Virus genome (UHGV): UHGV-0125022
Length of the DNA stretch: 18,842 nt
Direction: 5' to 3' (one strand)
Source: a virus
The position numbers and the translations under genes are program-made. This document shows positions 1 to 18,842 of the stretch, piece by piece (position 1 is the first letter of the stretch; each line of letters opens with the position of its first letter). The notes below the pieces were generated by a model. The model had not been told where the DNA came from, made no database searches, and saw only the letters and a list, made by a program, of their open reading frames with translations.

Positions 1-16
1 CGAGCGACATTGCTCC

Positions 17-44
17 GTGTATTCACTCGTTGGAATGAATACAC
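17..44. repeat. Perfect 9-bp inverted repeat (GTGTATTCA ... TGAATACAC, 10-nt spacer) just beyond the 3' end of the leftward 67-aa ORF
   Basis: Arms are exact reverse complements, read directly from the sequence. No flanking T-tract, so terminator function is unproven. Confidence 0.5.
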
Positions 45-49
45 AGTGC

Positions 50-250
50 TTATTCGCGAGCTTTGAGCATTGCGTCTGCAAACTTATATGCAGCGCTTGC
101 TGCATAATTAACAGCTCCATCAGAATCATTATCGATAATCGATGGATTGCTAATCATTGCTTGCATAGCCTTTGCCGCGAAGTAATCACGTAATGTCGCA
201 TCACTTGCCATTTCTGGGCGTTTGATATCTGCTTCATAAAACTCGCACAT
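50..250 (-). CDS. Hypothetical small protein (about 66 aa), distal gene of the leftward early (pL) operon
   Basis: ORF track 50..253 minus. ATG at 250-248 overlaps the upstream stop as TGATG. GGAGGT Shine-Dalgarno a few nt upstream. No recognisable motif. Confidence 0.5.
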   Translation of the reverse strand: MCEFYEADIKRPEMASDATLRDYFAAKAMQAMISNPSIIDNDSDGAVNYAASAAYKFADAMLKARE

Positions 251-501
251 CACTCACCTCCAAGAGCTTTGCTGATTGCTGACAGTGCTTTCGATACTTC
301 ATCAGGATAATGGTCATTCAATTTTTGCTTGTATGCCTTGTTTAGCATCGCTTGCAGAGCTTCGAGCAAATCAGGAGCTGCCTCCATCAATCTCACATCA
401 TCTCGATGGATGGTTGTATCGTCAAACGTGAAATAAACCCCATCATCGTTAAATCCAGCGCCAACAACATTCCATGGCCTTTTCATTCTTCCTACTGTCA
501 T
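250..501 (-). CDS. Hypothetical small protein (83 aa), leftward early operon
   Basis: ORF track. GAGGTG Shine-Dalgarno 5 nt upstream of the ATG. Stop overlaps the next start. Confidence 0.5.
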   Translation of the reverse strand: MTVGRMKRPWNVVGAGFNDDGVYFTFDDTTIHRDDVRLMEAAPDLLEALQAMLNKAYKQKLNDHYPDEVSKALSAISKALGGE

Positions 502-540
502 TATTCACCTCTGTGTATTTATGCCAAAAATAAAGGCCGA

Positions 541-855
541 CTATGTGGCTTTATATCTGCGCACTGAAATAATTGGGCAGTGTGTAATTCCAGCAGTCTT
601 TTCCCATCTCAACAATGGGATGCGGAATACTTCGAACTCCACCTTCCCGATATGGTCGTTTTGGAAATCCTTTTTCCCCACCAACCAAACCTTTTCAAAT
701 CTACGCTCTATAAGGAAAGCTGATGACCATCCATATTTAGAACCAGCTTTTAACGCTTCCTTTTTTGTCGGAAAGGTTGTAACAATGGAAATTATCTCAT
801 CAACTCGGAGACTTAAAAGATTATTGTCTTTAAAGCTAATTCCGTTCGACGCCAT
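541..855 (-). CDS. Hypothetical protein (104 aa), leftward early operon
   Basis: ORF track. GAGGGA Shine-Dalgarno about 7 nt upstream of the ATG. Same strand as the operon, which is why it is preferred over the overlapping plus-strand ORF 521..895. Confidence 0.45.
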   Translation of the reverse strand: MASNGISFKDNNLLSLRVDEIISIVTTFPTKKEALKAGSKYGWSSAFLIERRFEKVWLVGKKDFQNDHIGKVEFEVFRIPLLRWEKTAGITHCPIISVRRYKAT

Positions 856-918
856 AATTCATCCCTCATACAGTGGTTTGCTGCCAAAACAATGAACCAT
901 CCGGAAATTCCAGATAGT

Positions 919-1143
919 TCATAATTCACTCTTCAATACTTCCAACTTACTAATCGCCGATAGATATCCGCGCTGATAGGGCATCATCATTCCTTCGAGC
1001 TTGCCACTTCTTAACTCATCCCTGAGCAATTGTATTGCTTGATCAATAACCTCTGCCTTAGCGTCCTTTATGGCTTGCTTGCGGGGCTTTGCTTTCTGCT
1101 TTGGCAGATTTCTCAAGCATGATGGTATGTATGTCTGATTCAT
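919..1143 (-). CDS. Hypothetical small protein (about 74 aa) immediately downstream of N
   Basis: ORF track 919..1146. ATG at 1143-1141 sits directly after the N stop (TAA GTG ATG) with GAGGT upstream. Confidence 0.5.
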   Translation of the reverse strand: MNQTYIPSCLRNLPKQKAKPRKQAIKDAKAEVIDQAIQLLRDELRSGKLEGMMMPYQRGYLSAISKLEVLKSEL

Positions 1144-1146
1144 CAC

Positions 1147-1530
1147 TTACCTCGCTGTCAGTTGTTTTGATTTCCTGTAGCCTGCCGCGTAAATGGCTAC
1201 GTTTGGAAGACATACACCAGTTTCTGGTTGCTTATGTCCAAACTCATTCGCGTACACAATGGCCGCTCGCTCCAGATTGCGTCTGTATTCTTTCTGTTGC
1301 CAGATCACGTCCTGTGCCATGAACTTAATTGGCTTAGCGTCTTCTATGCGCTCAGGCGTTTCGTGAGTACCTTTAGCCTGAATCTGCGATCTGCTTAGAG
1401 TAGGGCGGTGTAATACTTCTGAACTTATTGCTTCTTCGCGGGCCAGTACGCCGTTAGCTAATGCCTTTGCCTTTAAACGCTCACGACGACGAGAACGTGA
1501 ATTGCCTTTGAACTGAGTTCTGCGTGTCAT
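1147..1530 (-). CDS. N: Transcription antitermination protein N (P22 gp24-like)
   Basis: N-terminal arginine-rich motif (RSRRRERLKAKA). C-terminus CLPNVAIYAAGYRKSKQLTAR resembles the P22 N C-terminus as I recall it. AGGAGG Shine-Dalgarno 6 nt upstream. Sits downstream of a boxB hairpin on the same strand. Confidence 0.8.
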   Translation of the reverse strand: MTRRTQFKGNSRSRRRERLKAKALANGVLAREEAISSEVLHRPTLSRSQIQAKGTHETPERIEDAKPIKFMAQDVIWQQKEYRRNLERAAIVYANEFGHKQPETGVCLPNVAIYAAGYRKSKQLTAR

Positions 1531-1791
1531 ATAGACCTCCTGATGAACTTTGGTGGTGTGGTGGCTGGTAGTCTAGCTCCAGCTTGTTGAGTCTCATTCG
1601 GAGGGGTATAACCGGCACCCCAGTGATTTTTCCATGCGACAACGTGCGCGTTATGGCGGCCTTATCGCCCGCGGCTCCCCATCTCGTCCACGCTATTGCT
1701 AGCGTTGGGAGCGCTTCACCGCTCAACAGTAGGTAAGCACTTGCCAGTGACTAGCTGGCTTCACCACACCCCAAAGTTCACTTTGGTTATT

Positions 1792-1806
1792 GCGCTTTGT
1801 CAGCGC
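1792..1806 (-). promoter_or_regulatory. nutL boxB hairpin (GCGCUGACAAAGCGC on the leftward transcript)
   Basis: 5-bp stem GCGCU/AGCGC with GACAA loop, the same loop as the nutR boxB at 4828-4842. No canonical boxA (CGCTCTT) found upstream of it. Confidence 0.6.
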
Positions 1807-1859
1807 CGTAGATTCATATTCGAATCGTTGTATATTCACCGCCCTGGTGAGTAGTGCGT

Positions 1860-1935
1860 CCTGCTGATGGGCAAACTTTATCGGAATGATAAATTAATGG
1901 CAATAGCAAAATGATAAATTCTTTTGATTTTCAAA
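1860..1935 (-). promoter_or_regulatory. Putative OL/pL region: repeated TGATAAAT operator-like motifs with a candidate leftward promoter (-35 TTGCCA, -10 TAAAGT)
   Basis: TGATAAAT at 1887-1894 and 1912-1919; the same motif recurs in the cI-cro intergenic region. Promoter hexamers are a by-eye assignment. Confidence 0.35.
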
Positions 1936-2104
1936 TATCGTATTGATTCTTATGGTGTTTTATTTTGTTGTAGGAATTCGACAGGATAAATAAAGAGATT
2001 TGAGGGAGATCTGGATTGCGTGGTTTAGCAAGTTGTATCAATCAGTTTTTCAATAAATACAATGAGTTATGTTTTTTAGGTGGGGGATCGAGAGGCAAAG
2101 AAAA

Positions 2105-2128
2105 CCCGGCGCTGAGGCCGGGTGAGAT
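2105..2128 (-). terminator. Rho-independent terminator closing the minus-strand cI cargo operon
   Basis: Minus strand reads CCCGGCCUCAGCGCCGGG (6-bp GC stem) followed by UUUUCUUUG, immediately after the stop of the 310-aa ORF. Confidence 0.6.
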
Positions 2129-2129
2129 A

Positions 2130-3062
2130 TTAAAGAACCGATTTAACAAGATGGTTTTTACGGTACAGACCTATGCGATCATTGTGAATCTCAGTAGTCT
2201 CCACTAAAAGAGAAACAATCTGTCCGACCTTGTGTTTTTTTTGTATTAAATCTAGCATTTCAATCGGATAGGAAGCCTTTAAATGTTCACCACCAACATC
2301 AAGCTCCAGCTTCCCATATTTGGATAGAACGACCAGTTCGCCTGTAACCGTTTCAGTAATGGGAGGTGATGAAATGGTTGATGTAAGTCTACTCACCAAG
2401 TACTTAATTTTATTGGAGTCAATAGTTACCACCTTGGTGCCATTACTAAATGGACCGGTCCAACTTGCATCAAATGTTAAGTTGTGTTTATCGCATTCCT
2501 CTACGATTCTCTTAAGGCTTACAGTGGAATTGTATCCAATTTCAGCGACGTGATTCATGAAGTTGTTGTCGTCATCGCTTAACAACAAATCGAATATGCC
2601 TTTTACAGCCTTGCTGGGTACTGTTTCTACTAATTCTGCTATTCCTGTAGAGAAGGTGACGCCCAATTTTGTAGACCCAGGGGATAAATCAGCCAGCCTG
2701 AGGTTTAAGGAGCTTTTCACGTCGTAGGGAACTTTTTTTGAGTCCTTGCCTGAGGCAATTTTGTGTGTTGCTCTTTGTATTAGCGCTGCAAGATTTGTTG
2801 AAATAGCCCCAAGCAGCTCTAAAGGAATAGAGCCAAAGTCAACCTCAGAGCCTTTCAGCCGCAGCTCAAAAAAATCGATAAGTGGGTGCCGACTATCTTG
2901 CTTTAATTTTTCGGCCTTCAAATCGCTCAGATGAGAATCCATGGAGCGATAAAGAAGCATGTCAGCAAAGGACCTGGTTTTGTTTTGCTTCATTGCATCG
3001 ACTTCTTTTTGAATGAAATCAATGCGTTTATCGCAATTTTTAAACATTGATTTATCATTCAT
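2130..3062 (-). CDS. Hypothetical 310-aa protein, distal gene of the two-gene module downstream of cI; candidate superinfection-exclusion or defence effector
   Basis: Long ORF with GAGGA Shine-Dalgarno 8 nt upstream. Start overlaps the upstream stop as ATGA. AT-rich. No motif I can assign. Confidence 0.7.
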   Translation of the reverse strand: MNDKSMFKNCDKRIDFIQKEVDAMKQNKTRSFADMLLYRSMDSHLSDLKAEKLKQDSRHPLIDFFELRLKGSEVDFGSIPLELLGAISTNLAALIQRATHKIASGKDSKKVPYDVKSSLNLRLADLSPGSTKLGVTFSTGIAELVETVPSKAVKGIFDLLLSDDDNNFMNHVAEIGYNSTVSLKRIVEECDKHNLTFDASWTGPFSNGTKVVTIDSNKIKYLVSRLTSTISSPPITETVTGELVVLSKYGKLELDVGGEHLKASYPIEMLDLIQKKHKVGQIVSLLVETTEIHNDRIGLYRKNHLVKSVL

Positions 3063-3538
3063 AAAAAAATCCTCACTAACCCTTTCGGGTTTTCACTGCG
3101 ATCAAAACCAAACCAACCGCGCCAGTAGCTACGCCAGTACTCATAATCATAGTTAGGGTCATCTAAATTCTTCATGAGTAGTAGGACATCAATTTTGTAG
3201 TTTTGTTTGATGTAGTTTCGGTCAAGCAAATTATCGACGCGGCCCCGAAGCATGACAGGTATTGAGTTTATATTGCTATAGTCACATACCAACAAAATAT
3301 CAATATCATCAGGCTCTGGTTTAGACGTGGTGTATGAACCATCAACCCATATTTCTGTAAAACAGCCATATTGAGCAGATAATTCTCGAATAGATTCGAG
3401 TAGCTGTATAAAATTACAGTATAGCATGCCTCGCCTGGATGATGAAGGAAAGCAATCGACACAATACGATTTTAATCCAGCTTCATCCATGTCATGGAAC
3501 CCTGGCTCAAACAGGGGTGGGTAATTAATTTTATCCAT
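3059..3538 (-). CDS. Minimal nucleotidyltransferase (Pol-beta superfamily, MNT-like) fold protein, 159 aa
   Basis: WVDGSYTTSKPEPDDIDILLV matches the hG[GS]-x9-13-Dh[DE]h nucleotidyltransferase signature. A further Asp-bearing strand KIDVLLL lies downstream. AAGG Shine-Dalgarno upstream. Confidence 0.65.
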   Translation of the reverse strand: MDKINYPPLFEPGFHDMDEAGLKSYCVDCFPSSSRRGMLYCNFIQLLESIRELSAQYGCFTEIWVDGSYTTSKPEPDDIDILLVCDYSNINSIPVMLRGRVDNLLDRNYIKQNYKIDVLLLMKNLDDPNYDYEYWRSYWRGWFGFDRSENPKGLVRIFL

Positions 3539-3737
3539 AAAAAACCTTGCTATACATTTGTTTTTTTATTAAAAATCTAACCACCGAAATGGTGACGGCA
3601 AGATGTTACATGGGGTTACAATCAGCCAATACACCGCATTAAATAATTTTTTCACCAGCTATGCGCCGACCAGAACACCTTGCCCATCACCCAAACGTCT
3701 CTTCAGGCCACTGGCTATCAGCTATGGGACGATGAAG

Positions 3738-4442
3738 TCACGAACTTTTCAGCCACTCCCTTGCCTCGATGTCATCCAGATGGCGAGATTGCTTCAGAAT
3801 ACCAGCCACATACTCCACCTTTGCTACTTGATGATAAGGCAACGTTATTGGCCTGTGGTCTTGGTTGATGCTTGTAAATTGGTATTCTCCATCTCTGTCA
3901 TAGCCAAGAACCTTAATCATGTTGTGTCCTTCAACGGTTCTGACAAACACCTCATCACCCGGGAATACTTTGGTGTTAGGCTCAATGAGTACATATTCTC
4001 CTGATTTTATTCTAGGCCACATGCTGTCTCCTTTCACACGAAGGCCAAAGGCATCTGGATCATCGCTATAAATTTTGAGCCACCCATCGCGCTCTTCGGT
4101 CATCTCGATGGCACCATCAACACCAAGAATTGCCTCACCAACCACGCGCACTAACCCTTTTCTTACCTGACCGACAAAAGTTAAAGAATCTGAGCATGAT
4201 GCAATTGGTGTTACATCATGTACCAAATCAAGCCACCCATTAGGTAACCCAAGTGCGGCTTCAAATTTTCTTGCTAGTTTATCCCCTATGTTTCGAGTGC
4301 TTTTTTCACCGGAGACTTGCGTGAGTTGAGAAGGGCTAACCCCAAGCTTATCGGCAAAGCTTGCATTAGTGTTACCCGCGATTTTTTTATGCTCATCTAG
4401 CAAAAACGCCAGATTCGATTTGCGAATATCTTTGTTTTCCAT
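3738..4442 (-). CDS. cI: CI-type prophage repressor (N-terminal HTH plus C-terminal S24/LexA-like autopeptidase domain)
   Basis: 234-aa protein with an HTH-like N-terminus and C-terminal S24-type domain (GDSMWPRIKSGEYVLIE, then a downstream Lys). Divergent from cro across an operator-rich intergenic region. Confidence 0.9.
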   Translation of the reverse strand: MENKDIRKSNLAFLLDEHKKIAGNTNASFADKLGVSPSQLTQVSGEKSTRNIGDKLARKFEAALGLPNGWLDLVHDVTPIASCSDSLTFVGQVRKGLVRVVGEAILGVDGAIEMTEERDGWLKIYSDDPDAFGLRVKGDSMWPRIKSGEYVLIEPNTKVFPGDEVFVRTVEGHNMIKVLGYDRDGEYQFTSINQDHRPITLPYHQVAKVEYVAGILKQSRHLDDIEAREWLKSS

Positions 4443-4555
4443 CTCACAATTTTCCCTCTATTTAGCAAATGGATAAATACGCAATATGATAAATTTACAT
4501 TGCGGTTGATTTATCAAAATGGTAAAGTTATTCTGTATGATAAACGGAGGCACTA
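4443..4555. promoter_or_regulatory. OR region with divergent pRM/pR promoters; repeated GATAAA(T) operator-like motifs
   Basis: GATAAAT at 4472, TGATAAAT at 4487-4494, its inverse ATTTATCA at 4509-4516, and TGATAAAC at 4538. Lies between the divergent cI and cro starts. Confidence 0.6.
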
Positions 4556-4789
4556 ATGAGTAATGAACTACTACGCTGGCGAAAAGAGGCTTCTAGTGAG
4601 GAATGGAAGCGACTCGCCGCATTAGCGAAAACTTCAGTTGGCTATCTTGACCAGATTGCATATGGATTTCGAAGAGCTTCCCCTGATAAAGCGAATGCAA
4701 TCGAAGAAGCTACTCGTAATTTCACGGCCTATAAACCCGTGAAAAAGGAAAACCTGGTGTTCGTATCGCGTAGAGCATCAGCAGCATAA
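4556..4789 (+). CDS. cro: Cro-like transcriptional regulator
   Basis: 77-aa protein divergent from cI. ACGGAGG Shine-Dalgarno. Position and size are typical of cro. Confidence 0.75.
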   Translation: MSNELLRWRKEASSEEWKRLAALAKTSVGYLDQIAYGFRRASPDKANAIEEATRNFTAYKPVKKENLVFVSRRASAA

Positions 4790-4796
4790 GTAACAC

Positions 4797-4842
4797 CGCT
4801 CTTTTCACAATGGACATTCGTCCTACGTCGCTGACAAAGCGA
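4797..4842 (+). promoter_or_regulatory. nutR: boxA (CGCTCTTTT, 4797-4805) and boxB hairpin (UCGCUGACAAAGCGA, 4828-4842)
   Basis: boxA matches the CGCTCTT consensus. boxB is a 5-bp stem with GACAA loop, paralogous to the nutL hairpin. Located just after the cro stop. Confidence 0.7.
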
Positions 4843-4927
4843 GCCCCAAGATATCTGACCAACTAAGGTCATATGAGTTTCCACGCATACCTTTCAACTA
4901 ACTATTCACTATTGGAAATATTAAGAA

Positions 4928-5224
4928 ATGACACAAGCAAGTTACAGCAAGCCAACACAGCGAGAAATTGATCGCGCTGAAACTGATTTACTCATCAACC
5001 TGTCAACGCTTACCCAGCGCGGTTTGGCAAAGATGATTGGCTGTCATGAATCGAAGATAAGCAGAACGGACTGGAGGTTTATTGCTTCGGTCTTGTGTGC
5101 TTTCGGAATGGCATCAGACATCAGTCCGATTAGTAGGGCTTTTAAGTATGCGCTTGATGAAATCACAAAGAAAAAATCCCCGGCCGCCACCGAGGATTTT
5201 AAGCAAATTGATATGCAATTCTGA
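4928..5224 (+). CDS. cII: CII-like transcriptional activator
   Basis: C-terminal KKKSPAATEDFKQIDMQF resembles the lambda CII C-terminus as recalled (KKRPAATERSEQIQMEF). Position between cro and O. Confidence 0.8.
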   Translation: MTQASYSKPTQREIDRAETDLLINLSTLTQRGLAKMIGCHESKISRTDWRFIASVLCAFGMASDISPISRAFKYALDEITKKKSPAATEDFKQIDMQF

Positions 5225-5256
5225 GGTAATTACTGGATCAATCCACAGGAGTCATT

Positions 5257-6102
5257 ATGACAAATACAGCAAAAATACTCAACTTCGGCAGAGGTAACTT
5301 TGCCGAACAGGAGCTAAGAGTGGCTGATATCGATGATGGTTACACCAGATTCGCTAACGAGCTGCTGGAAGCTATCGCAAGTGCCGATTTAACCGCTCGC
5401 CAGTTGAAAGTTATGCTGGCCTACGTCCGGAAAACATATGGATTCAATAAGAAAACAGATCGAATAGCCGATGAGCAAATTGCTCAGTTAACAGGACTAT
5501 CAAGGCAGAATGTTAACAAGGCTAAAAAAGAACTGATTTCAATGAATTGCCTGTTTATGGATGGAAATCAAATCGGTGTAGACAGGGAGGTATCTGCGTG
5601 GCAATTCAGCAAGTGTCTCCAAGTTAGCAACTTTGTCTCGAAGTTAGAGACAAAAAATGTCTCCAAATTAGAGACACTCAATGTCTCGAAGTTAGAGACA
5701 CACAAAAGACATTCTTTAAAGACAAAAGAAAATATTAATAAACCCCCTATATCCCCCAAAAAAATTTCTCAGAAGTTCGACCCGCTAGAAACAGAGTTGC
5801 CTGATTGGTTATCGGCAGAAACATGGTTGTCGTGGGTTACCTATCGCAAGGAGATAGGTAAGTCGATCAAGTCTAAGCAAAGCGTCACTCAGGCTATCAA
5901 CGTTCTAAGCAGAAGTCTGGAGAAGGGATATACACCTGAAGAAATTATAAACCAGAGCATCGCCAGTGGTTGGCAGGGGATTTTTGAACCCAAGACTCCA
6001 AAGGGGAAATCTCAACCGAGGCCGCAGCAGCGAGCTATGCAGGAAAACTTTGCCGCCAAAGATTACGGGCAAACTGAAATGCCTTCATGGGCGCAGGAGT
6101 GA
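5257..6102 (+). CDS. O: Replication initiator O (lambda O-like N-terminal domain)
   Basis: N-terminus MTNTAKILNFGRGNFA...DDGY matches lambda O as recalled. Internal repeat peptide VSKLET x3 is encoded by the origin iterons. Confidence 0.9.
   Translation: MTNTAKILNFGRGNFAEQELRVADIDDGYTRFANELLEAIASADLTARQLKVMLAYVRKTYGFNKKTDRIADEQIAQLTGLSRQNVNKAKKELISMNCLFMDGNQIGVDREVSAWQFSKCLQVSNFVSKLETKNVSKLETLNVSKLETHKRHSLKTKENINKPPISPKKISQKFDPLETELPDWLSAETWLSWVTYRKEIGKSIKSKQSVTQAINVLSRSLEKGYTPEEIINQSIASGWQGIFEPKTPKGKSQPRPQQRAMQENFAAKDYGQTEMPSWAQE
5614..5745. repeat. Origin of replication inside O: four about 19-bp palindromic iterons (TGTCTCnAAnTTAGAGACA; one degenerate) at 24-bp period, then an AT-rich tract
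   Basis: Iterons at 5614-5632 (degenerate), 5634-5652, 5658-5676 and 5682-5700. AT-rich ACAAAAGACATTCTTTAAAGACAAAAGAAAATATTAATAAA follows. Same architecture as lambda ori. Confidence 0.8.
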
Positions 6103-6104
6103 AT

Positions 6105-6998
6105 ATGAATACGACAAATGGTTACAATCTGGCACTGCAAAGGCAACTTGTAGACTCAAAAATCAATGACATTTCTGATCTGAAACAGAAACTTGAGTTT
6201 AGCAAAATTGGATCAGTATCAGATGGAATGTCAGTTACCAGCACAGTGGAAGAGTGCGAGAAACACGGTAAATATACTTCCTATGAGAAATATCTGACCA
6301 TCTCAGGAAAAAGAATTACTTCAAGTAAATCTGAGTGCCCACAGTGCCTTGAGGAGAAAATTCGTAAGAAAGAGATTGAACGTGAGCAGGCAGAACAAAG
6401 AGCAAGACAATCAAAAATTGAATATTTGTTGAATTCTCTCAATATTCCAGAGAGGTTCAAAAATTGCACTCTTCAGAATTATGAGCCTGTTAACGATGAT
6501 GCAAAGCGAGTTCTTAAGGTATGCCAGGCATATGCCAGTAAGTGGCCTGAACGCCTTCAAAAAGGTGGCGGACTGGTCATGTGTGGTAAGCCTGGAACTG
6601 GAAAGAACCACCTTGCACTGGCTATCGCTAGGCACGCCATTATCGAGCATCAAAGCTCTGTGATATTTACCACTGCGTTGAAAATTGCCAGAGAGTACAA
6701 ATCAACATGGTCTAAGGCCGCAACCAGAACTGAAGAAGAAGTCATTAGGCAATTTACGCATCCTGACTTGTTAATAATCGATGAGGTTGGCGTGCAGTTC
6801 GGCAGTGATGCTGAAAAGCTAATCATGTTCGAAATTATCAACACCAGATATGAATACATGAAGCCAACAATCCTGATTAGTAATCAGAGCAAAGATGAAC
6901 TTTCGGCATTCATTGGTGAGCGTGTTATTGACAGGATGAATGATGGCGGAGGGTGCACTCTTGCGTTTACATGGGATAGTTACAGGAGCAGATCGTGA
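6105..6998 (+). CDS. DnaC/IstB-type AAA+ helicase loader (functional counterpart of lambda P)
   Basis: Walker A GKPGTGKNHLA and Walker B LLIIDEVG. AGGAGTGA Shine-Dalgarno before the ATG at 6105. The ORF track extends to 6087, but 6105 is preferred. Confidence 0.85.
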   Translation: MNTTNGYNLALQRQLVDSKINDISDLKQKLEFSKIGSVSDGMSVTSTVEECEKHGKYTSYEKYLTISGKRITSSKSECPQCLEEKIRKKEIEREQAEQRARQSKIEYLLNSLNIPERFKNCTLQNYEPVNDDAKRVLKVCQAYASKWPERLQKGGGLVMCGKPGTGKNHLALAIARHAIIEHQSSVIFTTALKIAREYKSTWSKAATRTEEEVIRQFTHPDLLIIDEVGVQFGSDAEKLIMFEIINTRYEYMKPTILISNQSKDELSAFIGERVIDRMNDGGGCTLAFTWDSYRSRS

Positions 6999-7285
6999 CT
7001 GGAAAAGAAATCATCCTGGAATATCTGAAAACTCATGAACAATTCTCCCCACATGAATTAGCTCTGATCACCGGAATACCAAATAACAGAATCGCTCAAG
7101 CAGCAAGGCATATGGTGAAACAAGGGCATTTGAGTGTTGTTGAGCGTAAGTGGAAGATGGTTATTTATGCAAAGCGCAAAGTGAAGAAGGAGCCAATTAA
7201 AAGAAATCCAGATGGTACGGGGTGGGGATGTGCAAATCCAATGACGGCGTTTATTAATAGGGCGCTTATGGAGGTAAGGCAATGA
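6995..7285 (+). CDS. ren: Ren-like protein
   Basis: N-terminus MTGKEIILEYLKTHEQF resembles lambda Ren (MTGKEAIIHYLGTH...) as recalled. GTG start overlapping the upstream stop. Confidence 0.65.
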   Translation: MTGKEIILEYLKTHEQFSPHELALITGIPNNRIAQAARHMVKQGHLSVVERKWKMVIYAKRKVKKEPIKRNPDGTGWGCANPMTAFINRALMEVRQ

Positions 7286-12701: not shown

Positions 12702-13165
12702 TTAGCGCACTGGTTAAGCGTTACTGGCTGCAGTTGCTGGTGCTGGCGTTAATCGGCGCACTGGCTTTCTTCGTGAACCACTACCGCGACAACGCCATCA
12801 CTTACAGAGACCAGCGCGATAAGGCCACTGAGAAACTCCTCCTGGCGACCGCCACCATTAAAGACATGCAGACCCGCCAGCGTGATGTCGCTGCACTGGA
12901 TGCCAAATACACCGGAGAACTGGCTGATGCGAAAGAAACCATTGAGCGTCTGCATAGCGATGTCATTGCTGGCCGTAAGCGGCTGCAAGTCGCCGCCACC
13001 TGTGCAAAGTCAACGACCGGAGCCAGCAGCATGGGCGATGGAGAAAGCCCAAGACTTACAGCAGATGCTGAACTCAATTATTACCGTCTACGAAGTGGAA
13101 TCGACAAGATAACCGCGCAGGTTAACTACCTGCAGGAATACATCAGGACGCAATGCCTGAAATAA
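12698..13165 (+). CDS. Rz: Spanin inner-membrane subunit Rz (i-spanin)
   Basis: N-terminal TM segment then [17 protein letters not shown] and [13 protein letters not shown], close to lambda Rz as recalled. ATGA overlap with the lysozyme stop. Confidence 0.85.
12927..13112 (+). CDS. Rz1: Spanin outer-membrane lipoprotein Rz1 (o-spanin), embedded in the +1 frame of Rz
   Basis: Hand-translated 61-aa protein [25 protein letters not shown]... with lipobox LAVSGC and a Pro-rich mature part, wholly inside Rz. Confidence 0.7.
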
Positions 13166-13196
13166 TTTTTTTTGCAAATCACAAAGTCAATTTAAT

Positions 13197-13222
13197 GAGC
13201 CTCGCGATGCGGGGTTTTTTTT
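13197..13222 (+). terminator. Rho-independent terminator after the lysis cassette
   Basis: CCUCGC/GCGGGG stem (one G-U pair, short loop) followed by eight T residues. Confidence 0.5.
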
Positions 13223-13371
13223 ACATCTGAATTTCACAGCGCATCTCACGCGCATATTACATCACCCGAGCCTTTCAGAAAGTTGAGCCTGAGAACTGCC
13301 GTATATGGTGGCGACCATCTCGGGGCGGCTTTTCTGTGAGACAGGCTCACTTTCTAAAAGGTAAAGACGCT

Positions 13372-13890
13372 ATGAATAATCCGTCAGTTATTCCGGCCTT
13401 CGACTTCCGCGAAATGGTCACGACCCTCGACAACAAGATAATCACCACATCACTCAAGGTGGCGGATTACTTTGGCAAGCGACACAAAGACGTTTTGCGT
13501 GCCATACGTAACCTGAAATGCTCCGATGACTTCACCCAGCGCAATTTTGCGCCCATTGATTTCATTGATAAAAATGGCGATGTTCAGCCTATGTATAACA
13601 TCACCCGCGACGGATGCATGATGCTAGTGATGGGATTCACTGGCAAAACAGCTGCCGCAGTGAAGGAGTGTTACATCAATGCCTTCAACTGGATGGCCGA
13701 GCAGCTAAACCGGCGCATGGCGATGGGTGAAGAATTGCAGCATCGCTACGCCATCAAAGAAACGCGCTCAAAGCTGAAAGGCACGATCGGAAGCCGTTTG
13801 ATGAACGAGCGGAAGAAAGAGAAGCGCGTCCTGGAGCTCGAACATGAGCACATCATGCAGGTAACGCAGCCGGAATTACTTATTGGCTGA
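13372..13890 (+). CDS. rha: Rha-family phage regulatory protein
   Basis: N-terminal TSLKVADYFGKRHKDVLRAIRNL is the Rha-domain hallmark. ORF track 13336..13890; ATG at 13372 preferred. Confidence 0.7.
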   Translation: MNNPSVIPAFDFREMVTTLDNKIITTSLKVADYFGKRHKDVLRAIRNLKCSDDFTQRNFAPIDFIDKNGDVQPMYNITRDGCMMLVMGFTGKTAAAVKECYINAFNWMAEQLNRRMAMGEELQHRYAIKETRSKLKGTIGSRLMNERKKEKRVLELEHEHIMQVTQPELLIG

Positions 13891-13950
13891 ACGCGGCATT
13901 ACAGAAGCCCTTCATTGAGGGGCTTCGATAATGGAGCACTGGAATTATTC

Positions 13951-14571
13951 ATGAACAGACCACACCCACCAGCGCATTTTACGATGCCACCTGACCCGAA
14001 GCCGTACATCAGCATTATGCCCGCTAATGACGTTGGCGAGTGGCTGAATCAGCACATCCTGAGCGATGAGGGTGACCTCTACAACCATGACCACCAGCAT
14101 TTGCTTGAAGCGGATCTGTGCTTTCTCTGGGCATCGAACGCTTTCGAGAAGAAAGGGCGTTCCGTGCTGGGGCAGGCGGAAGAAGTGGCAATGCGGGCCG
14201 GAGGCTGGCAGAAAGCGCGGATGGAGCAGCAGATGTATGAATGGTTCGGCAGGGTGCCGCAGTTCATCATCACGCTGGCCGCCGATTACTGCTCGCAATG
14301 TTCCGATCTGGAATTCTGCGCGCTGATAGAGCACGAGCTTTATCACATCTGCCAAGCGACAGATGAATTTGGTGCGCCGAAGTTCACGCAGGAAGGGCAG
14401 CCAAAGCTGAAGCTGCGCGGCCATGACGTGGAAGAGTTTGTGGGCGTGGTTCGCCGTTACGGTGCAAGCCGGGACGTGCAGGAAATGATTGATGCGGCGA
14501 ATCAGCCAGCGGAGGTTGCTCATCTCGATATTGCCAGAGCGTGCGGGACGTGCATGTTAAAGCTGGCGTGA
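13951..14571 (+). CDS. Hypothetical protein with HExxH motif (putative zinc metallopeptidase-like)
   Basis: IEHELYHICQ contains HExxH. ORF track starts at a TTG at 13915; first ATG is 13951 with a weak Shine-Dalgarno. Confidence 0.55.
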   Translation: MNRPHPPAHFTMPPDPKPYISIMPANDVGEWLNQHILSDEGDLYNHDHQHLLEADLCFLWASNAFEKKGRSVLGQAEEVAMRAGGWQKARMEQQMYEWFGRVPQFIITLAADYCSQCSDLEFCALIEHELYHICQATDEFGAPKFTQEGQPKLKLRGHDVEEFVGVVRRYGASRDVQEMIDAANQPAEVAHLDIARACGTCMLKLA

Positions 14572-14602
14572 ATTCTAGACTGGTATGGACGGATGGTGAA
14601 AT

Positions 14603-15076
14603 ATGGCTGCTTTAAAACCGGAAGTAAAAGCCTTCATCATTCAATCGCTTGCGTGCTTTGATACTCCTTCTCAAGTTGTCGAATCCGTCAAGAAAGAGTT
14701 TGGGTTAACTATTTCTCGCCAGCAAGCCGAAGCACACGACCCAACCAAGGCTAGTAGCAAAGGTTTAGCCAAAAAGTGGATCGAGATGTTCCACGCGACG
14801 CGCAAACGGTTCCTGACCGAAACCAGCGACATTCCGATCGCGAACAAATCCTATCGCCTCCGCGTGCTTGACCGTATGGCAACCAAAACCGAGGGGATGA
14901 AAAACTTCTCCCTGACGGCGCAGCTCATTGAGCAGGCCGCGAAAGAGGTTGGCGATGCATACACCAATAAGCTGAAGGTTGAGAGCACTGGCAAGGATGG
15001 CGGCCCGATCAAGACCGAGACGACCAACCTCACCGCAGATCAGGCCGCAGAGATTTACCGCAAGATGATGGGGTGA
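14603..15076 (+). CDS. Putative terminase small subunit (DUF2280-like)
   Basis: 157-aa protein immediately upstream of, and overlapping, the large terminase. Basic N-terminal region. Assignment is mainly positional. Confidence 0.6.
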
Positions 15077-16701
15077 TCATGCCTCTTCCGTTTGAATTCG
15101 ATTTCAGAAACCCTGATTACCAGATGGTTTTTGAATGGCGGATGGAGCGCTTACAGCGCATTCGCCAGAACCCTGAAATGCTGCCAGCGCTAAAGCAGTT
15201 TTACCGCACCAACCCGGCACAGTTCATCATCGACTGGGGGATGACTACTGACCCGCGTAACATCGATTATGGCCTGCCGGTCACCATCCCTTTTCTGCTG
15301 TTCCCGAAACAGGAAGAGTGGATTCACTGGATCATGGAGCGGCGCGAACGACTGGAGAACGGCATCACCGAAAAGAGCCGCGAAATGGGGCTCAGCTGGA
15401 CGGCGATCGGGCTGGCCTGTTCGCTCTGCCTCTTCAACAAAGAAATGGTCATCGGCTTCGGCTCCCGTAAAGAGGAATACGTCGACAGCACCGGAGACCC
15501 GAAGGCGCTGTTCTGGAAGGCGCGCAAGTTCGTGGAAACGCTGCCCATCGAGTTTCGTGGTTCGTGGGACGAGAAGAAGCATGCGCCGTATATGCGCGTT
15601 GAGTTTCCCGATACTGGCGCGGTTATCAAAGGCGAGGCTGGCGACAATATCGGACGTGGTGACCGTACCACGCTCTACCTGGTGGATGAAGCTGCATTCC
15701 TCCAGCGTCCTCTGTTGATTGATGCGGCGCTGTCGCAAACCACCCGTTGCCGTATTGACCTGAGCTCGGTTAATGGCATGGCGAACCCGTTCGCGCAGAA
15801 GCGCCACGGCGGAAAAATACCAGTATTCACGTTCCACTGGCGGGATGATCCTCGCAAGGATGAAGAGTGGTATCGCAGGGAGTGCGAGAAAATCGACAAT
15901 CCGGTGGTGGTGGCGCAGGAACTTGACCTGAACTACAGCGCATCTGCGGAAGGCGTCCTGATCCCGTCCGACTGGGTACAGGCTGCCGTCGACGCGCATA
16001 TCAAACTTGGTATTCAGCCAACGGGCAAGCGACTGGGCGCGATGGACGTCGCCGACGAAGGCCGGGACAAAAACGCCTTTTCGACCCGTCACGGCTTCCT
16101 TCTGGAGAACGTGCGTGAATGGTCCGGCGTTGGCAGCGACATTTACCAGTCCGTTGAGAAGGTCTTCGGCTTTTGCGAACAGGACAACCTCGAAGAATTT
16201 CGCTTCGACGAGGACGGCCTGGGCGCTGGCGTTCGCGGCGATGCACGCGCCATCAACGAACTGCGTAACGCTGCGCGCCGACCGTCAATACTCGCCACAC
16301 CGTTTCGCGGTAGCGGCGCGGTGTTTGATCCGGACGACGAAGCGGTGCGCGGCGACAACGGACAGGCCGCCCGCCTGAATAAGGACTTCTTCGCTAACGC
16401 CAAGGCCCAGAGCTGGTGGCATTTACGCAAGCTTTTCCAGAACACCTATCGCGCCGTGGTTGAGGGCATGGCCTACAACCCGGACGAAATCATCTCAATC
16501 AGCAGCGCCATGGCGAGCAAAGACAAACTCATCATCGAGCTGTCGCAGCCGACCTACTCCATTAATGGCGTGGGGAAAATCGTTGTTGATAAACAGCCTG
16601 ATGGCACCAAGTCGCCGAACCTCGCCGACTCGGTGATGATCAGCTACGCGCCAATGAATTCAGCCCTGAACATCTGGGAGCTGCTAGGGAGACAGGCCTG
16701 A
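15073..16701 (+). CDS. Terminase large subunit
   Basis: 542 aa. ATPase-like segment then LYLVDEAAF (Walker B-like). Size and position before the portal. Start is GTG 15073 or ATG 15079. Confidence 0.85.
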
Positions 16702-18170
16702 TGGCACGAAACAAGCAATCCTCTCAGCGAACGGCACAGCCCACCGCTGACGGCTACGAGAACTTCGTCGCCCGCGTTGGGATGCAGACGCCTAACCAGC
16801 ATTCAGCATCGACCTACCGGGCGAACTCCACCAGCCGCAACCGCATGCTGGTGGAATGGTCATATCGCGGTTCGTGGGTTATCGGTGAAGCGGTCGACGC
16901 TATCCCGGACGATATGACCCGAAAGGGCATTCGCATCACTTCGGAGATTGACGCCAAAGACCGTGGCACCCTCGAAGCGCAACTGGATGAGTTGCAGATC
17001 TGGGATGCGCTGAACGACGTGCTGAAATGGTCGCGCCTCTACGGCGGCGCGGTCGGCTTCATCATGATCGAGGGGCAAGCACCAATGACCCCGCTGCGAC
17101 TCGAAACCATTGGCGAGGGCAAGTTTAAGGGCATTCTCCCGCTCGACCGCTGGATGATTAACCCGGTGCTGACACGCCGCATTAAAGAGATGGGGCCGGA
17201 CCTCGGCAAGCCTGAGTTTTACGACGTGGTGACCACCGCAACGGGCATTCCGGCCTGGCGCATCCATCACAGCCGCCTGATCCGCTTTGATGGCGTCACG
17301 CTGCCATTCCAGCAGAAGATGACCGAAAACGAATGGGGAATGTCGGTTGTAGAGCGTATCTGGGATCGGCTTACTGCGTTCGATAGCGCTACTGTCGGCG
17401 CGGCGCAGCTGGTCTATAAAGCGCATCTGCGTACCTATAGCGTGGAGAAGTTGCGCGAGCTTATCGCGCTTGGAGGCCCGGCGTTCGAAGCGTTGCTGAA
17501 GAACATCGACCTGATCCGCCAGTTCCAGAGCAATGAAGGTATGACGCTCATGGACTCGCGGGATAAGTTCGAAACCCACCAGTACAGCTTTAGTGGTCTG
17601 GATGACATTCTTTCGCAGTTTGCTGAGCAGATCAGCGGTGCCGTTGGTATCCCGCTGGTACGCCTGTTCGGTCAATCCCCGAAAGGCTTCTCTACTGGTG
17701 ATGCAGACCTCGCCAACTATTACGACCGGGTGAGCTCATTGCAGGAGCGCCGCTTACGGCTGCCGATGCGCCGGATACTGGACATTATGCACCGCTCGGA
17801 ACTCGGAAAGCCGCTGCCGGAAGATTTCACGTTTGAGTTTAACCCGCTATGGCAAATGTCAGACGTTGACCGATCAACGGTGGCCGTAAACACCACCAAC
17901 GCGATCAGTACCGCGCTGGGCGACGGATTGATGACGCGTAAGGCGGCGATGACCGACCTGCGCGAAAACTCTGACGTCACCGGCATCGGGGCATCCATTA
18001 CCGACGAGGATATCGAGAATGCCGAAGACGAAGCGCCGCCAGGCATCGGCGAACTTGGCGACAAACCGCCAGAGTCGCCAGGCGGAGATCCGATATCGAA
18101 CGAGCCTACGGCAGATAGCGCGGGCGGTCGGGGATATCGTAAATGGGCGCTACGATGGTTCAAACGATAG
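16701..18170 (+). CDS. Portal protein
   Basis: 489-aa protein directly after terL (ATGA overlap), with an acidic C-terminal tail. Position and size typical of portal. Confidence 0.8.
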   Translation: MARNKQSSQRTAQPTADGYENFVARVGMQTPNQHSASTYRANSTSRNRMLVEWSYRGSWVIGEAVDAIPDDMTRKGIRITSEIDAKDRGTLEAQLDELQIWDALNDVLKWSRLYGGAVGFIMIEGQAPMTPLRLETIGEGKFKGILPLDRWMINPVLTRRIKEMGPDLGKPEFYDVVTTATGIPAWRIHHSRLIRFDGVTLPFQQKMTENEWGMSVVERIWDRLTAFDSATVGAAQLVYKAHLRTYSVEKLRELIALGGPAFEALLKNIDLIRQFQSNEGMTLMDSRDKFETHQYSFSGLDDILSQFAEQISGAVGIPLVRLFGQSPKGFSTGDADLANYYDRVSSLQERRLRLPMRRILDIMHRSELGKPLPEDFTFEFNPLWQMSDVDRSTVAVNTTNAISTALGDGLMTRKAAMTDLRENSDVTGIGASITDEDIENAEDEAPPGIGELGDKPPESPGGDPISNEPTADSAGGRGYRKWALRWFKR

Positions 18171-18183
18171 CGTCACCGAAATA

Positions 18184-18792
18184 ATGGATGCGCTGGAGCG
18201 CTACAGCGAAATCATCACCCCCTGGGCGACGAAGGTTGCTGAGAACTTCACCGCAGACATAGCGCGCCAGAATGAAAAGCAGTGGCGTCAGCACAGCCGG
18301 AACATCAGCGCAGAGCTGCGCAACATGGTTGACCGCGCCCCGGTAGGCCAGGTGATGAAATCCATCGTCGCCGAGCAAATTAAGTACATCAAATCTCTGC
18401 CTCTTGAGGCCGCCGATCGGGTGTATGACATTCAGAACAAGGCCATCGAGGCTGTAGTAACTGGTGGCCGCGCTGAGCCATTCGCGAAAGAGATAGCTGC
18501 TTCCGGTGACGTGTCACGCTCACGAGCGAACCTTATCGCCCGGACTGAGCTTGGGCGCGCAACCGGCGCGCTGGATCAGGCGCGTGCGCTGTCAATCGGC
18601 TCGAATGGTTATATCTGGCGTACAGCCGAAGATGGCGACGTCCGGCATTCTCATCGAGAGATGGAAGGGAAGTTTGTCGAATGGGGCCGACCTCCAACGC
18701 TTGACGGCATGACCGGTCACGCTGGCGAGCTCCCGAACTGCCGCTGTTACAAAGAAATCGTCTTCCCCAACCCTCATTCTTATCTCGCCTGA
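18184..18792 (+). CDS. Head morphogenesis protein (Mu gpF / SPP1 gp7 family)
   Basis: C-terminal motifs IARTELGRA ... HSHREMEG ... LPNCRC are typical of the Mu F family. First ATG after the portal stop is 18184; the ORF track extends in frame back to 18019. Confidence 0.7.
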   Translation: MDALERYSEIITPWATKVAENFTADIARQNEKQWRQHSRNISAELRNMVDRAPVGQVMKSIVAEQIKYIKSLPLEAADRVYDIQNKAIEAVVTGGRAEPFAKEIAASGDVSRSRANLIARTELGRATGALDQARALSIGSNGYIWRTAEDGDVRHSHREMEGKFVEWGRPPTLDGMTGHAGELPNCRCYKEIVFPNPHSYLA

Positions 18793-18806
18793 ATCGCAGG
18801 TAAACC

Positions 18807-18842
18807 ATGAAATATTTTTTCAATACCCGGCTGGGGGAAACC
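18807..18842 (+). CDS. Start of a further head-region ORF (MKYFFNTRLGET...), truncated by the window end
   Basis: ATG at 18807 with an AGG-rich stretch upstream. Only 12 codons visible. Confidence 0.3.
   Translation, partial: MKYFFNTRLGET

Follow-up and report, generated by a model that had tools for sequence, protein, structure and literature searches.

A nucleotidyltransferase gene pair carried as mobile cargo between cI and pL of a lambdoid prophage is a member of the defence candidate family PDC-M63

The interval between the repressor gene and the pL promoter of lambdoid phages houses rexAB, the oldest known phage-exclusion system. We analysed an 18,842-nt stretch of the virus genome UHGV-0125022 (hereafter the window, whose numbering is used throughout), a mosaic lambdoid E. 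coli prophage of which at most 69% is covered by any complete E. coli genome, and found an unrelated cassette of two genes in that interval: gene A, encoding a 159-aa minimal nucleotidyltransferase (NTase), and gene B, encoding a 310-aa partner protein. The two products match both components of one PADLOC candidate system, PDC-M63, and the genes are adjacent, co-oriented and overlapping; the cassette is therefore a member of this catalogued family, which is a computational defence candidate. PDC-M63 was described as never before verified experimentally by the authors of its one deletion test (see below). Since the pair was already catalogued, and since phage mEpX1 carries a cassette 99% identical to this one, with both genes annotated as hypothetical, the finding is less novel than an earlier note on this DNA, made from the sequence alone, had implied. 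The elements of the locus are as follows.

3738..4442, minus strand: cI repressor, 234 aa, with Peptidase_S24 and helix-turn-helix (HTH) domains, co-oriented with gene A and directly upstream of it
3059..3538, minus strand: gene A, 159-aa DUF6932 minimal nucleotidyltransferase (PDC-M63A, PHROG 9194)
2130..3062, minus strand: gene B, 310-aa partner (PDC-M63B, PHROG 6603), with no Pfam family
3059..3062, minus strand: ATGA stop/start overlap of A and B (4 nt, checked on the minus strand), predicted to couple their translation
2094..3713, minus strand: the whole mobile cassette (upstream spacer, A, B and terminator), 1.62 kb, bounded by recurrent homology breakpoints
3539..3713, minus strand: spacer preceding A, which moves along with the cassette and is part of its homology in other contexts
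2097..2123, minus strand: intrinsic terminator closing the cassette (stem 2104-2123, T-tract 2097-2103)
1875..1903, minus strand: pL-like promoter with the OL operator (1877-1893), past the end of the cassette and before the N-like gene
4461..4544: OR operator cluster of three sites, between cI and cro
1147-1530: N-like gene, past OL/pL from the cassette

The order on the minus strand is thus cI, a 199-bp spacer, gene A, gene B, the intrinsic terminator, OL/pL and the N-like gene; the earlier note had given the coordinates and lengths of the two open reading frames, and their ATGA overlap, exactly. A candidate operator consensus, TTTATC-N5-GATAAA, has seven sites in the window (0.9 expected) and marks OL and OR around cI and the pair, which places A and B in the position of lambda rexA-rexB; this placement had also been claimed, and the candidate operators and the pL-like promoter bear it out. 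Position and orientation are identical to those of RexAB (between cI and OL/pL, with a terminator at the end), but A and B share no sequence or architectural similarity with it and gave no PADLOC Rex match. RexB is a membrane protein, whereas neither A nor B has a transmembrane segment (maximum 19-residue hydropathy 1.25 and 1.38, respectively). Given this position, expression together with the repressor in lysogens is probable. Cargo of this kind at this slot is in itself unsurprising.

Several described systems combine an NTase with a partner protein, and we compared each with the A-B pair. The HEPN-MNT system (MntA-HepT) also has a small minimal NTase first and a coupled partner second, and A shows weak fold similarity to MNT proteins; however, B consists of a helical hairpin, an alpha/beta region and an OB-fold rather than the all-helical Rx4-6H HEPN domain. 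No HEPN match was found in the B protein of the window, and among 70 deep B homologs one gave a weak match to HEPN_AbiU2 (E 0.005). AbiE/MenAT (DUF1814) shares the logic proposed below, namely a Pol-beta-fold NTase toxin with a cognate neutralizer in defence and toxin-antitoxin (TA) contexts; A is half the size and lacks PF08843, the likeness is at the superfamily level only, and we found no PADLOC AbiE match and no AbiEi-type winged HTH or HTH domain in B. Hailong (HalA/HalB) and Clover (CloA/CloB) are likewise two-gene systems with an NTase, and the OB-fold of B could bind an NTase-made oligonucleotide, but B has neither the transmembrane channel of HalA nor the dNTPase domain of CloA. Against these characterized systems, the A-B pair varies the NTase-based TA/defence theme with a partner that is unlike any studied protein.

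The assignment of A as a minimal nucleotidyltransferase, which the earlier note had proposed, stood up well. A matches Pfam DUF6932 (PF22014) with 87.3 bits (gathering cut-off 27) and PDC-M63A with an E-value of 1.8e-41 over residues 1-158 of 159. The relevant segments are:

3299..3340, minus strand: catalytic motif of A, G67-S68 (3335-3340) and D78-I-D80 (3299-3307)
3188-3190, minus strand: third carboxylate of A, D117
3104..3133, minus strand: RSYWRGWFGF motif of A (aa 136-145), a family signature, invariant or nearly so in the DUF6932 alignment

In an alignment of 38 A homologs (identity down to 35%), G67, S68, D78 and D80 do not vary, and at least 90% of the sequences have D117; the Pol-beta signature hG[GS]-x9-13-Dh[DE]h is present as G67-S68, nine residues and D78-I-D80, with D117 as the third carboxylate. 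The AlphaFold2 model of A has the NTase core fold (predicted local distance difference test score, pLDDT, 95.8). Its nearest solved folds are all weak matches (E at least 2.5e-3), with MNT antitoxins first, followed by CdnC, AadA and Pol beta. Sub-threshold matches to NTP_transf_2 (22 of the 38 members, best 8.8e-6), Polbeta and DNA_pol_B_palm were seen across the family. Neither A nor its 38 homologs matched AbiEii (PF08843) or a CD-NTase family, the PDB sequence search with the A profile gave nothing significant, and NCBIfam had no match for A or B. Because the GS/DxD/D signature is intact and conserved, the model is confident and the clan matches extend across the family, A is probably an active minimal Pol-beta-type nucleotidyltransferase of a family of its own.

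For protein B, the earlier statement that it has no recognizable domain holds for Pfam and NCBIfam, but not beyond them: B matches PDC-M63B (E 6.9e-45, residues 23-304 of 310) and PHROG 6603, and it has a predicted C-terminal OB-fold. All 70 deep B homologs match PDC-M63B as well, and an exhaustive profile search found 268 clusters of the family at 50% identity, nearly all of them stand-alone proteins of 300-325 aa. The AlphaFold2 model of B (pLDDT 82, predicted template modelling score 0.70) has a helical hairpin, a central alpha/beta region and a C-terminal barrel of the order beta1-3/helix/beta4-5, so that three parts can be distinguished:

2883..3062, minus strand: B residues 1-60, basic helical hairpin (helices 10-25 and 32-57 in the AlphaFold2 model), proposed to bind and neutralize A
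2367..2882, minus strand: B residues 61-232, central alpha/beta region, which holds the invariant G129-S130 loop (2673-2678)
2133..2366, minus strand: B residues 233-310, OB-fold domain of the predicted structure

As modelled, the C-terminus has the marks of an OB-fold: a five-stranded beta-barrel, a helix between strands 3 and 4, and structural similarity to known OB-folds. In an alignment of 140 B homologs (median identity 23%), S130 is conserved in 100% and G129 in 99%, both within a hairpin loop of low pLDDT, and E63, R68, R122 and W201 are also strongly conserved. A Pfam census of the 70 deep homologs revealed no recurrent family, PDB sequence searches with profiles of B and of its deep family gave nothing significant, and in a Foldseek search of the PDB the N-terminal two-thirds of B had no significant match. 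Two readings of this part were tried and rejected: a cyclase- or Cas10-palm-like fold, for which the Foldseek matches were weak (E 0.04-0.3) and judged insufficient, and a CARF- or SAVED-like role for the GS loop, whose motif is out of register and lies in a different fold. We also observed that B residues 62-146 (2625-2879) show weak similarity to the N-terminal part of PDC-M32A, another PADLOC candidate protein, as do 9-15 of the 70 deep members; judging by sequence similarity, this may be a shared module.

A B-family open reading frame follows A in 79 of the 79 viral loci with room for B, mostly with a 4-nt overlap, and also in every B-type bacterial locus sampled; the pairing is obligate. 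On viral contigs, Peptidase_S24 occurs in 31 and HTH_3 in 35 of the 58 distinct same-strand neighbours upstream of the pair, and the repressor-adjacent copies include those of distant phages (locus L020) and Providencia prophages. Outside phages, the pair lies beside a type I restriction-modification (RM) system and YoeB/YefM (L016), beside a Type ISP RM system on an integrative element (L023), beside a giant 1723-aa DUF4011/DUF3320 helicase (L017), and within an anti-restriction region on a mobile element (L018). The constant pairing, the repressor-adjacent position and these non-phage neighbourhoods, together with the mobility described below, support the view of A-B as a conflict module. 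Two very distant hosts (45% and 71.5% GC; L007, 2399-7372, and L021, 1286-6143) carry the pair directly downstream of imuB-dnaE2, in both cases as a low-GC insert.

Some copies of the pair are altered. In E. coli KL53 (L110, 4430-5970), the IS4-family element ISVsa5 lies in the 5' part of A and B is intact. A loss of A tolerated next to an intact B would lend minor support to A being the toxin, yet the insertion is probably polar on B and hence says little. In one viral copy (L047, 5471-6136), B is truncated to 221 aa and A is intact, and this may be a decaying copy.

We also compared the window with 15 viral contigs whose A proteins are 98-100% identical. Their similarity to the window sets in at 2094, immediately beyond the terminator, and breaks off at about 3689-3732, at most 50 bp from the cI stop, with breakpoints recurring at 2094 and at about 3711-3717; near-identical copies are found next to no fewer than eight different repressor alleles, and the limits of the cassette are the same in mEpX1 and in E. 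coli genomes (it is present in 18 of 5426 complete ones; a scan of genome contigs for close relatives yielded seven). By these sequence breakpoints, the cassette is a discrete 1.62-kb module that moves as a unit between repressor types. Phages that share the cI of the window have other cargo at this place: mEp506 (L002, 2632-3762) has a HicA-HicB-HicC toxin-antitoxin-chaperone set, and Stx2a_WGPS9 (L027, 1635-2976) has three unrelated genes, so that the cI-pL interval is a cargo hotspot. Both the recurrent breakpoints beside many repressor alleles and the other cargo of the sister phages agree with the earlier proposal of a horizontally acquired cassette. The companion argument from base composition was overstated: the cassette is slightly AT-richer (GC 40.7%, compared to 43.4% for the backbone, taken as positions 1-7000 minus the cassette, and 44.7% for cI), but the difference is marginal. 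In some Providencia prophages (L004 and L006, 5125-5466), a DUF3024 gene lies between the repressor and the A-B pair, showing that the slot can stack cargo.

Two loci point to the roles of the partners. In L022 (1838-3134) and L024 (3222-4524), a DUF6932 gene is followed by a gene for a 114-aa protein and then by one for a SecB-like chaperone, which is the layout of toxin-antitoxin-chaperone (TAC) systems such as HigBAC, CmdTAC and HicABC, the last of which occupies the same slot in mEp506. In TAC systems, the gene order is toxin, antitoxin, chaperone, and the chaperone stabilizes the antitoxin via a C-terminal addiction element (PMC5105189, PMC6377645, bioRxiv 10.1101/2024.02.24.581848); TACs can act against phages (PMC11618068). 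Residues 1-60 are the only part of B to which the 114-aa protein shows homology, which is in register (32.7 bits, compared to a maximum of 12.1 in 4000 shuffles; pairwise BLAST against the B family gave E-values down to 3e-8). The C-terminal half of the 114-aa protein is acidic and has many aromatic residues. By analogy with TAC systems, the combination of a hairpin protein with SecB suggests that the hairpin is the module that neutralizes A and that A is the toxin, with B as neutralizer and sensor. The arrangement possibly represents a new TAC family, made up of a DUF6932 NTase, a 114-aa hairpin protein and a SecB-like chaperone; the TAC literature examined contains no mention of an NTase toxin. 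The partners and chaperones of the two loci are 98-99% identical and the NTases 66%, which suggests that the NTase has been swapped or is diversifying. The pair in the window is not itself a TAC system: no SecB gene is present in the window, B is the last gene before the terminator that closes the cassette, and the partner is a 310-aa multidomain protein.

Putting these observations together, we tentatively favour a mobile TA-like module for abortive infection or exclusion, expressed with or beside cI in the lysogen, in which A is an NTase effector and B a hairpin-tethered neutralizer with an OB-fold sensor. A would be the enzymatic toxin and would nucleotidylylate a cellular target, plausibly the 3' end of an RNA or tRNA, or a protein; B would restrain it through the N-terminal helical hairpin. 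The central domain with its invariant Gly-Ser loop and the C-terminal OB-fold, which in full-length B are additions to the hairpin, would form the sensing or regulatory part (most simply a sensor), and a phage cue, such as single-stranded nucleic acid or a phage protein, would be sensed by B and would lead to the release of A. The complementary charges of the acidic A (isoelectric point 4.7) and the basic hairpin of B (9.2) lend this minor support. A broader proposal, which we regard as doubtful, is that DUF6932 systems form a mechanistically new class of prophage immunity, with a toxin that is an MNT-like minimal NTase, of a family whose known members are otherwise antitoxins, and a modular partner whose OB-fold senses single-stranded phage nucleic acid or replication intermediates, and with toxin and hairpin rewired to SecB in the TAC-type loci.

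Several points weigh against A as the toxin in a defence module. The nearest solved folds of A are MNT antitoxins rather than NTase toxins; A has no AbiEii/MenT family match; and an acidic protein is not what one would expect of an enzyme that binds RNA unaided. The TAC-type evidence comes from two loci of one partner/chaperone lineage, and further loci of this type were sought with none found (the sequence of one locus, L029, ends just after A). In addition, the one functional report found describes that deletion of PDC-M63AB in E. coli NILS69, its native host, left the efficiency of plating and liquid-culture lysis unchanged with ten virulent phages. This negative result carries limited weight, since four other systems (Thoeris, PD-T7-1, PsyrTA and SoFIC) were equally silent in the same assay. 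The defence or TA-like reading, which was already put forward in the earlier note, has thus gained the PDC-M63 match, the neighbourhoods with RM systems, TA systems and mobile genetic elements, and the TAC-type variant, while the sole published deletion test gave it no phenotype. A literature search found no publication on DUF6932, PF22014 or the PHROGs of A and B, and nothing functional on the mEpX1 cassette.

The polarity could be the opposite, with B as the effector and A as its negative regulator, such that phage interference with A or its product unleashes B, as in HEPN-MNT, Hailong and Clover. A might then nucleotidylylate B (e.g., at Ser130), or make a nucleotide or oligonucleotide that is bound by the OB-fold of B. 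The best structural neighbours of A are MNT antitoxins that AMPylate HEPN toxins (7ae2, 7ae9, 7bxo and 8xeh), the NTase-first gene order is the same as in MNT-HEPN, and HalB and CloB are precedents for NTases that hold an effector off and whose inactivation is toxic; moreover, the fully conserved serine of B sits in a low-confidence loop, and OB-folds typically bind single-stranded DNA or oligonucleotides. B, however, has no recognizable toxic or effector domain (no HEPN domain, nuclease or transmembrane segment). The TAC-type partner, which retains only the hairpin of B and lacks the Ser loop and the OB-fold, yet pairs with A and would require a SecB chaperone, bears the hallmark of an antitoxin, and in contrast to HEPN-MNT it suggests that the NTase is the toxin. 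We consider this reversed polarity, with its two variants taken together, unlikely.

A plain addiction or stabilization TA module, or another type of lysogenic-conversion cargo, would serve the prophage or island but would not stop other phages. The TAC variant and the TA-like architecture of the pair are in keeping with such a module, the pair is found on integrative elements and islands, and the defence test in the native host was negative, although that test was confined to virulent phages. On the other hand, exclusion genes (rexAB) classically lie in this slot after cI, as does HicABC in mEp506, distant copies lie beside RM systems, PADLOC lists the pair as a defence candidate, and TACs and many TA systems proved to be antiphage (bioRxiv 10.1101/2024.02.24.581848; PMC11618068). 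We give this explanation a small chance.

The two loci downstream of imuB-dnaE2 raise the question of a role in DNA-damage-linked nucleic-acid processing, in which the OB-fold protein would bind single-stranded DNA or RNA ends and recruit the NTase for tailing or modification, with consequences for repair, mutagenesis or the control of prophage induction. The OB-fold of B, the Pol-beta-type NTase and the position of the phage copies downstream of LexA-like S24 repressors would suit such a pair, and the position downstream of imuB-dnaE2 recurs in two very distant hosts; but the low GC of the pair in both dnaE2 loci points to acquired DNA, separate from the operon, and its other contexts (RM, TA or mobile elements) are unlike those of repair genes. 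As the TAC-type variant also lacks the OB-fold, and the patchy, cassette-like distribution among complete E. coli genomes is typical of conflict genes, we regard a processing role as improbable. The least probable explanation is a minimal CBASS-type second messenger, made by A on infection and sensed and executed by B: the two-gene layout of NTase and partner and a weak structural similarity of A to CdnC (6u7b, 6p80) are in its favour, but A has 159 aa compared to about 300 aa or more in CD-NTases and lacks their C-terminal domain, B lacks any known sensor (SAVED, STING, CARF) or effector domain (no phospholipase or transmembrane segment), and neither protein matched CBASS in PADLOC or Pfam.

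If the pair is a true immunity or TA system, it would represent an NTase effector class separate from those of AbiE/MenT, HEPN-MNT and CBASS, with an OB-fold sensor added; the link to the SecB-chaperone variants makes the toxin/antitoxin assignment directly and cheaply testable. If the pair has no activity, as the result in the native host would suggest where virulent phages are concerned, it would call for caution in treating PADLOC candidates as defence systems. The B family is a widespread defence candidate, and the window itself shows that unrelated cassettes are exchanged in the region that houses rexAB.

Turning to the control elements, the terminator that the earlier note had placed at 2105-2128 is real, with its limits corrected as listed above; it has a 7-bp GC-rich stem and a dG of -13.7 kcal/mol (z -2.67 compared to shuffles). 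The spacer that travels with the cassette may contain a promoter or regulatory region; the 199-bp cI-A spacer showed no significant RNA structure, and a promoter scan of it gave none above threshold. An Rfam scan of 1500-4600 gave one sub-threshold match, within cI, and none in the spacer. At the A/B junction (3051-3067), the sequence TTTATCATTCATAAAAA resembles an operator, with two mismatches to the candidate consensus; we rejected it as a regulatory element, and it is probably a chance occurrence, since the cassette travels beside many unrelated repressors.

Elsewhere in the window, the cI protein is 98% identical to that of H-19B and mEp506-type phages. The late region (13000-18842) has a GC content of 55.5%, compared to about 43% in the early region, a strong compositional mosaic within one prophage; it includes the following two genes.

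15073-16701: TerL
16701-18170: portal

The O-like replication protein (5257-6102) contains tandem NVSKLET peptide repeats, which probably correspond to origin iterons inside the O-like gene, as in lambda.

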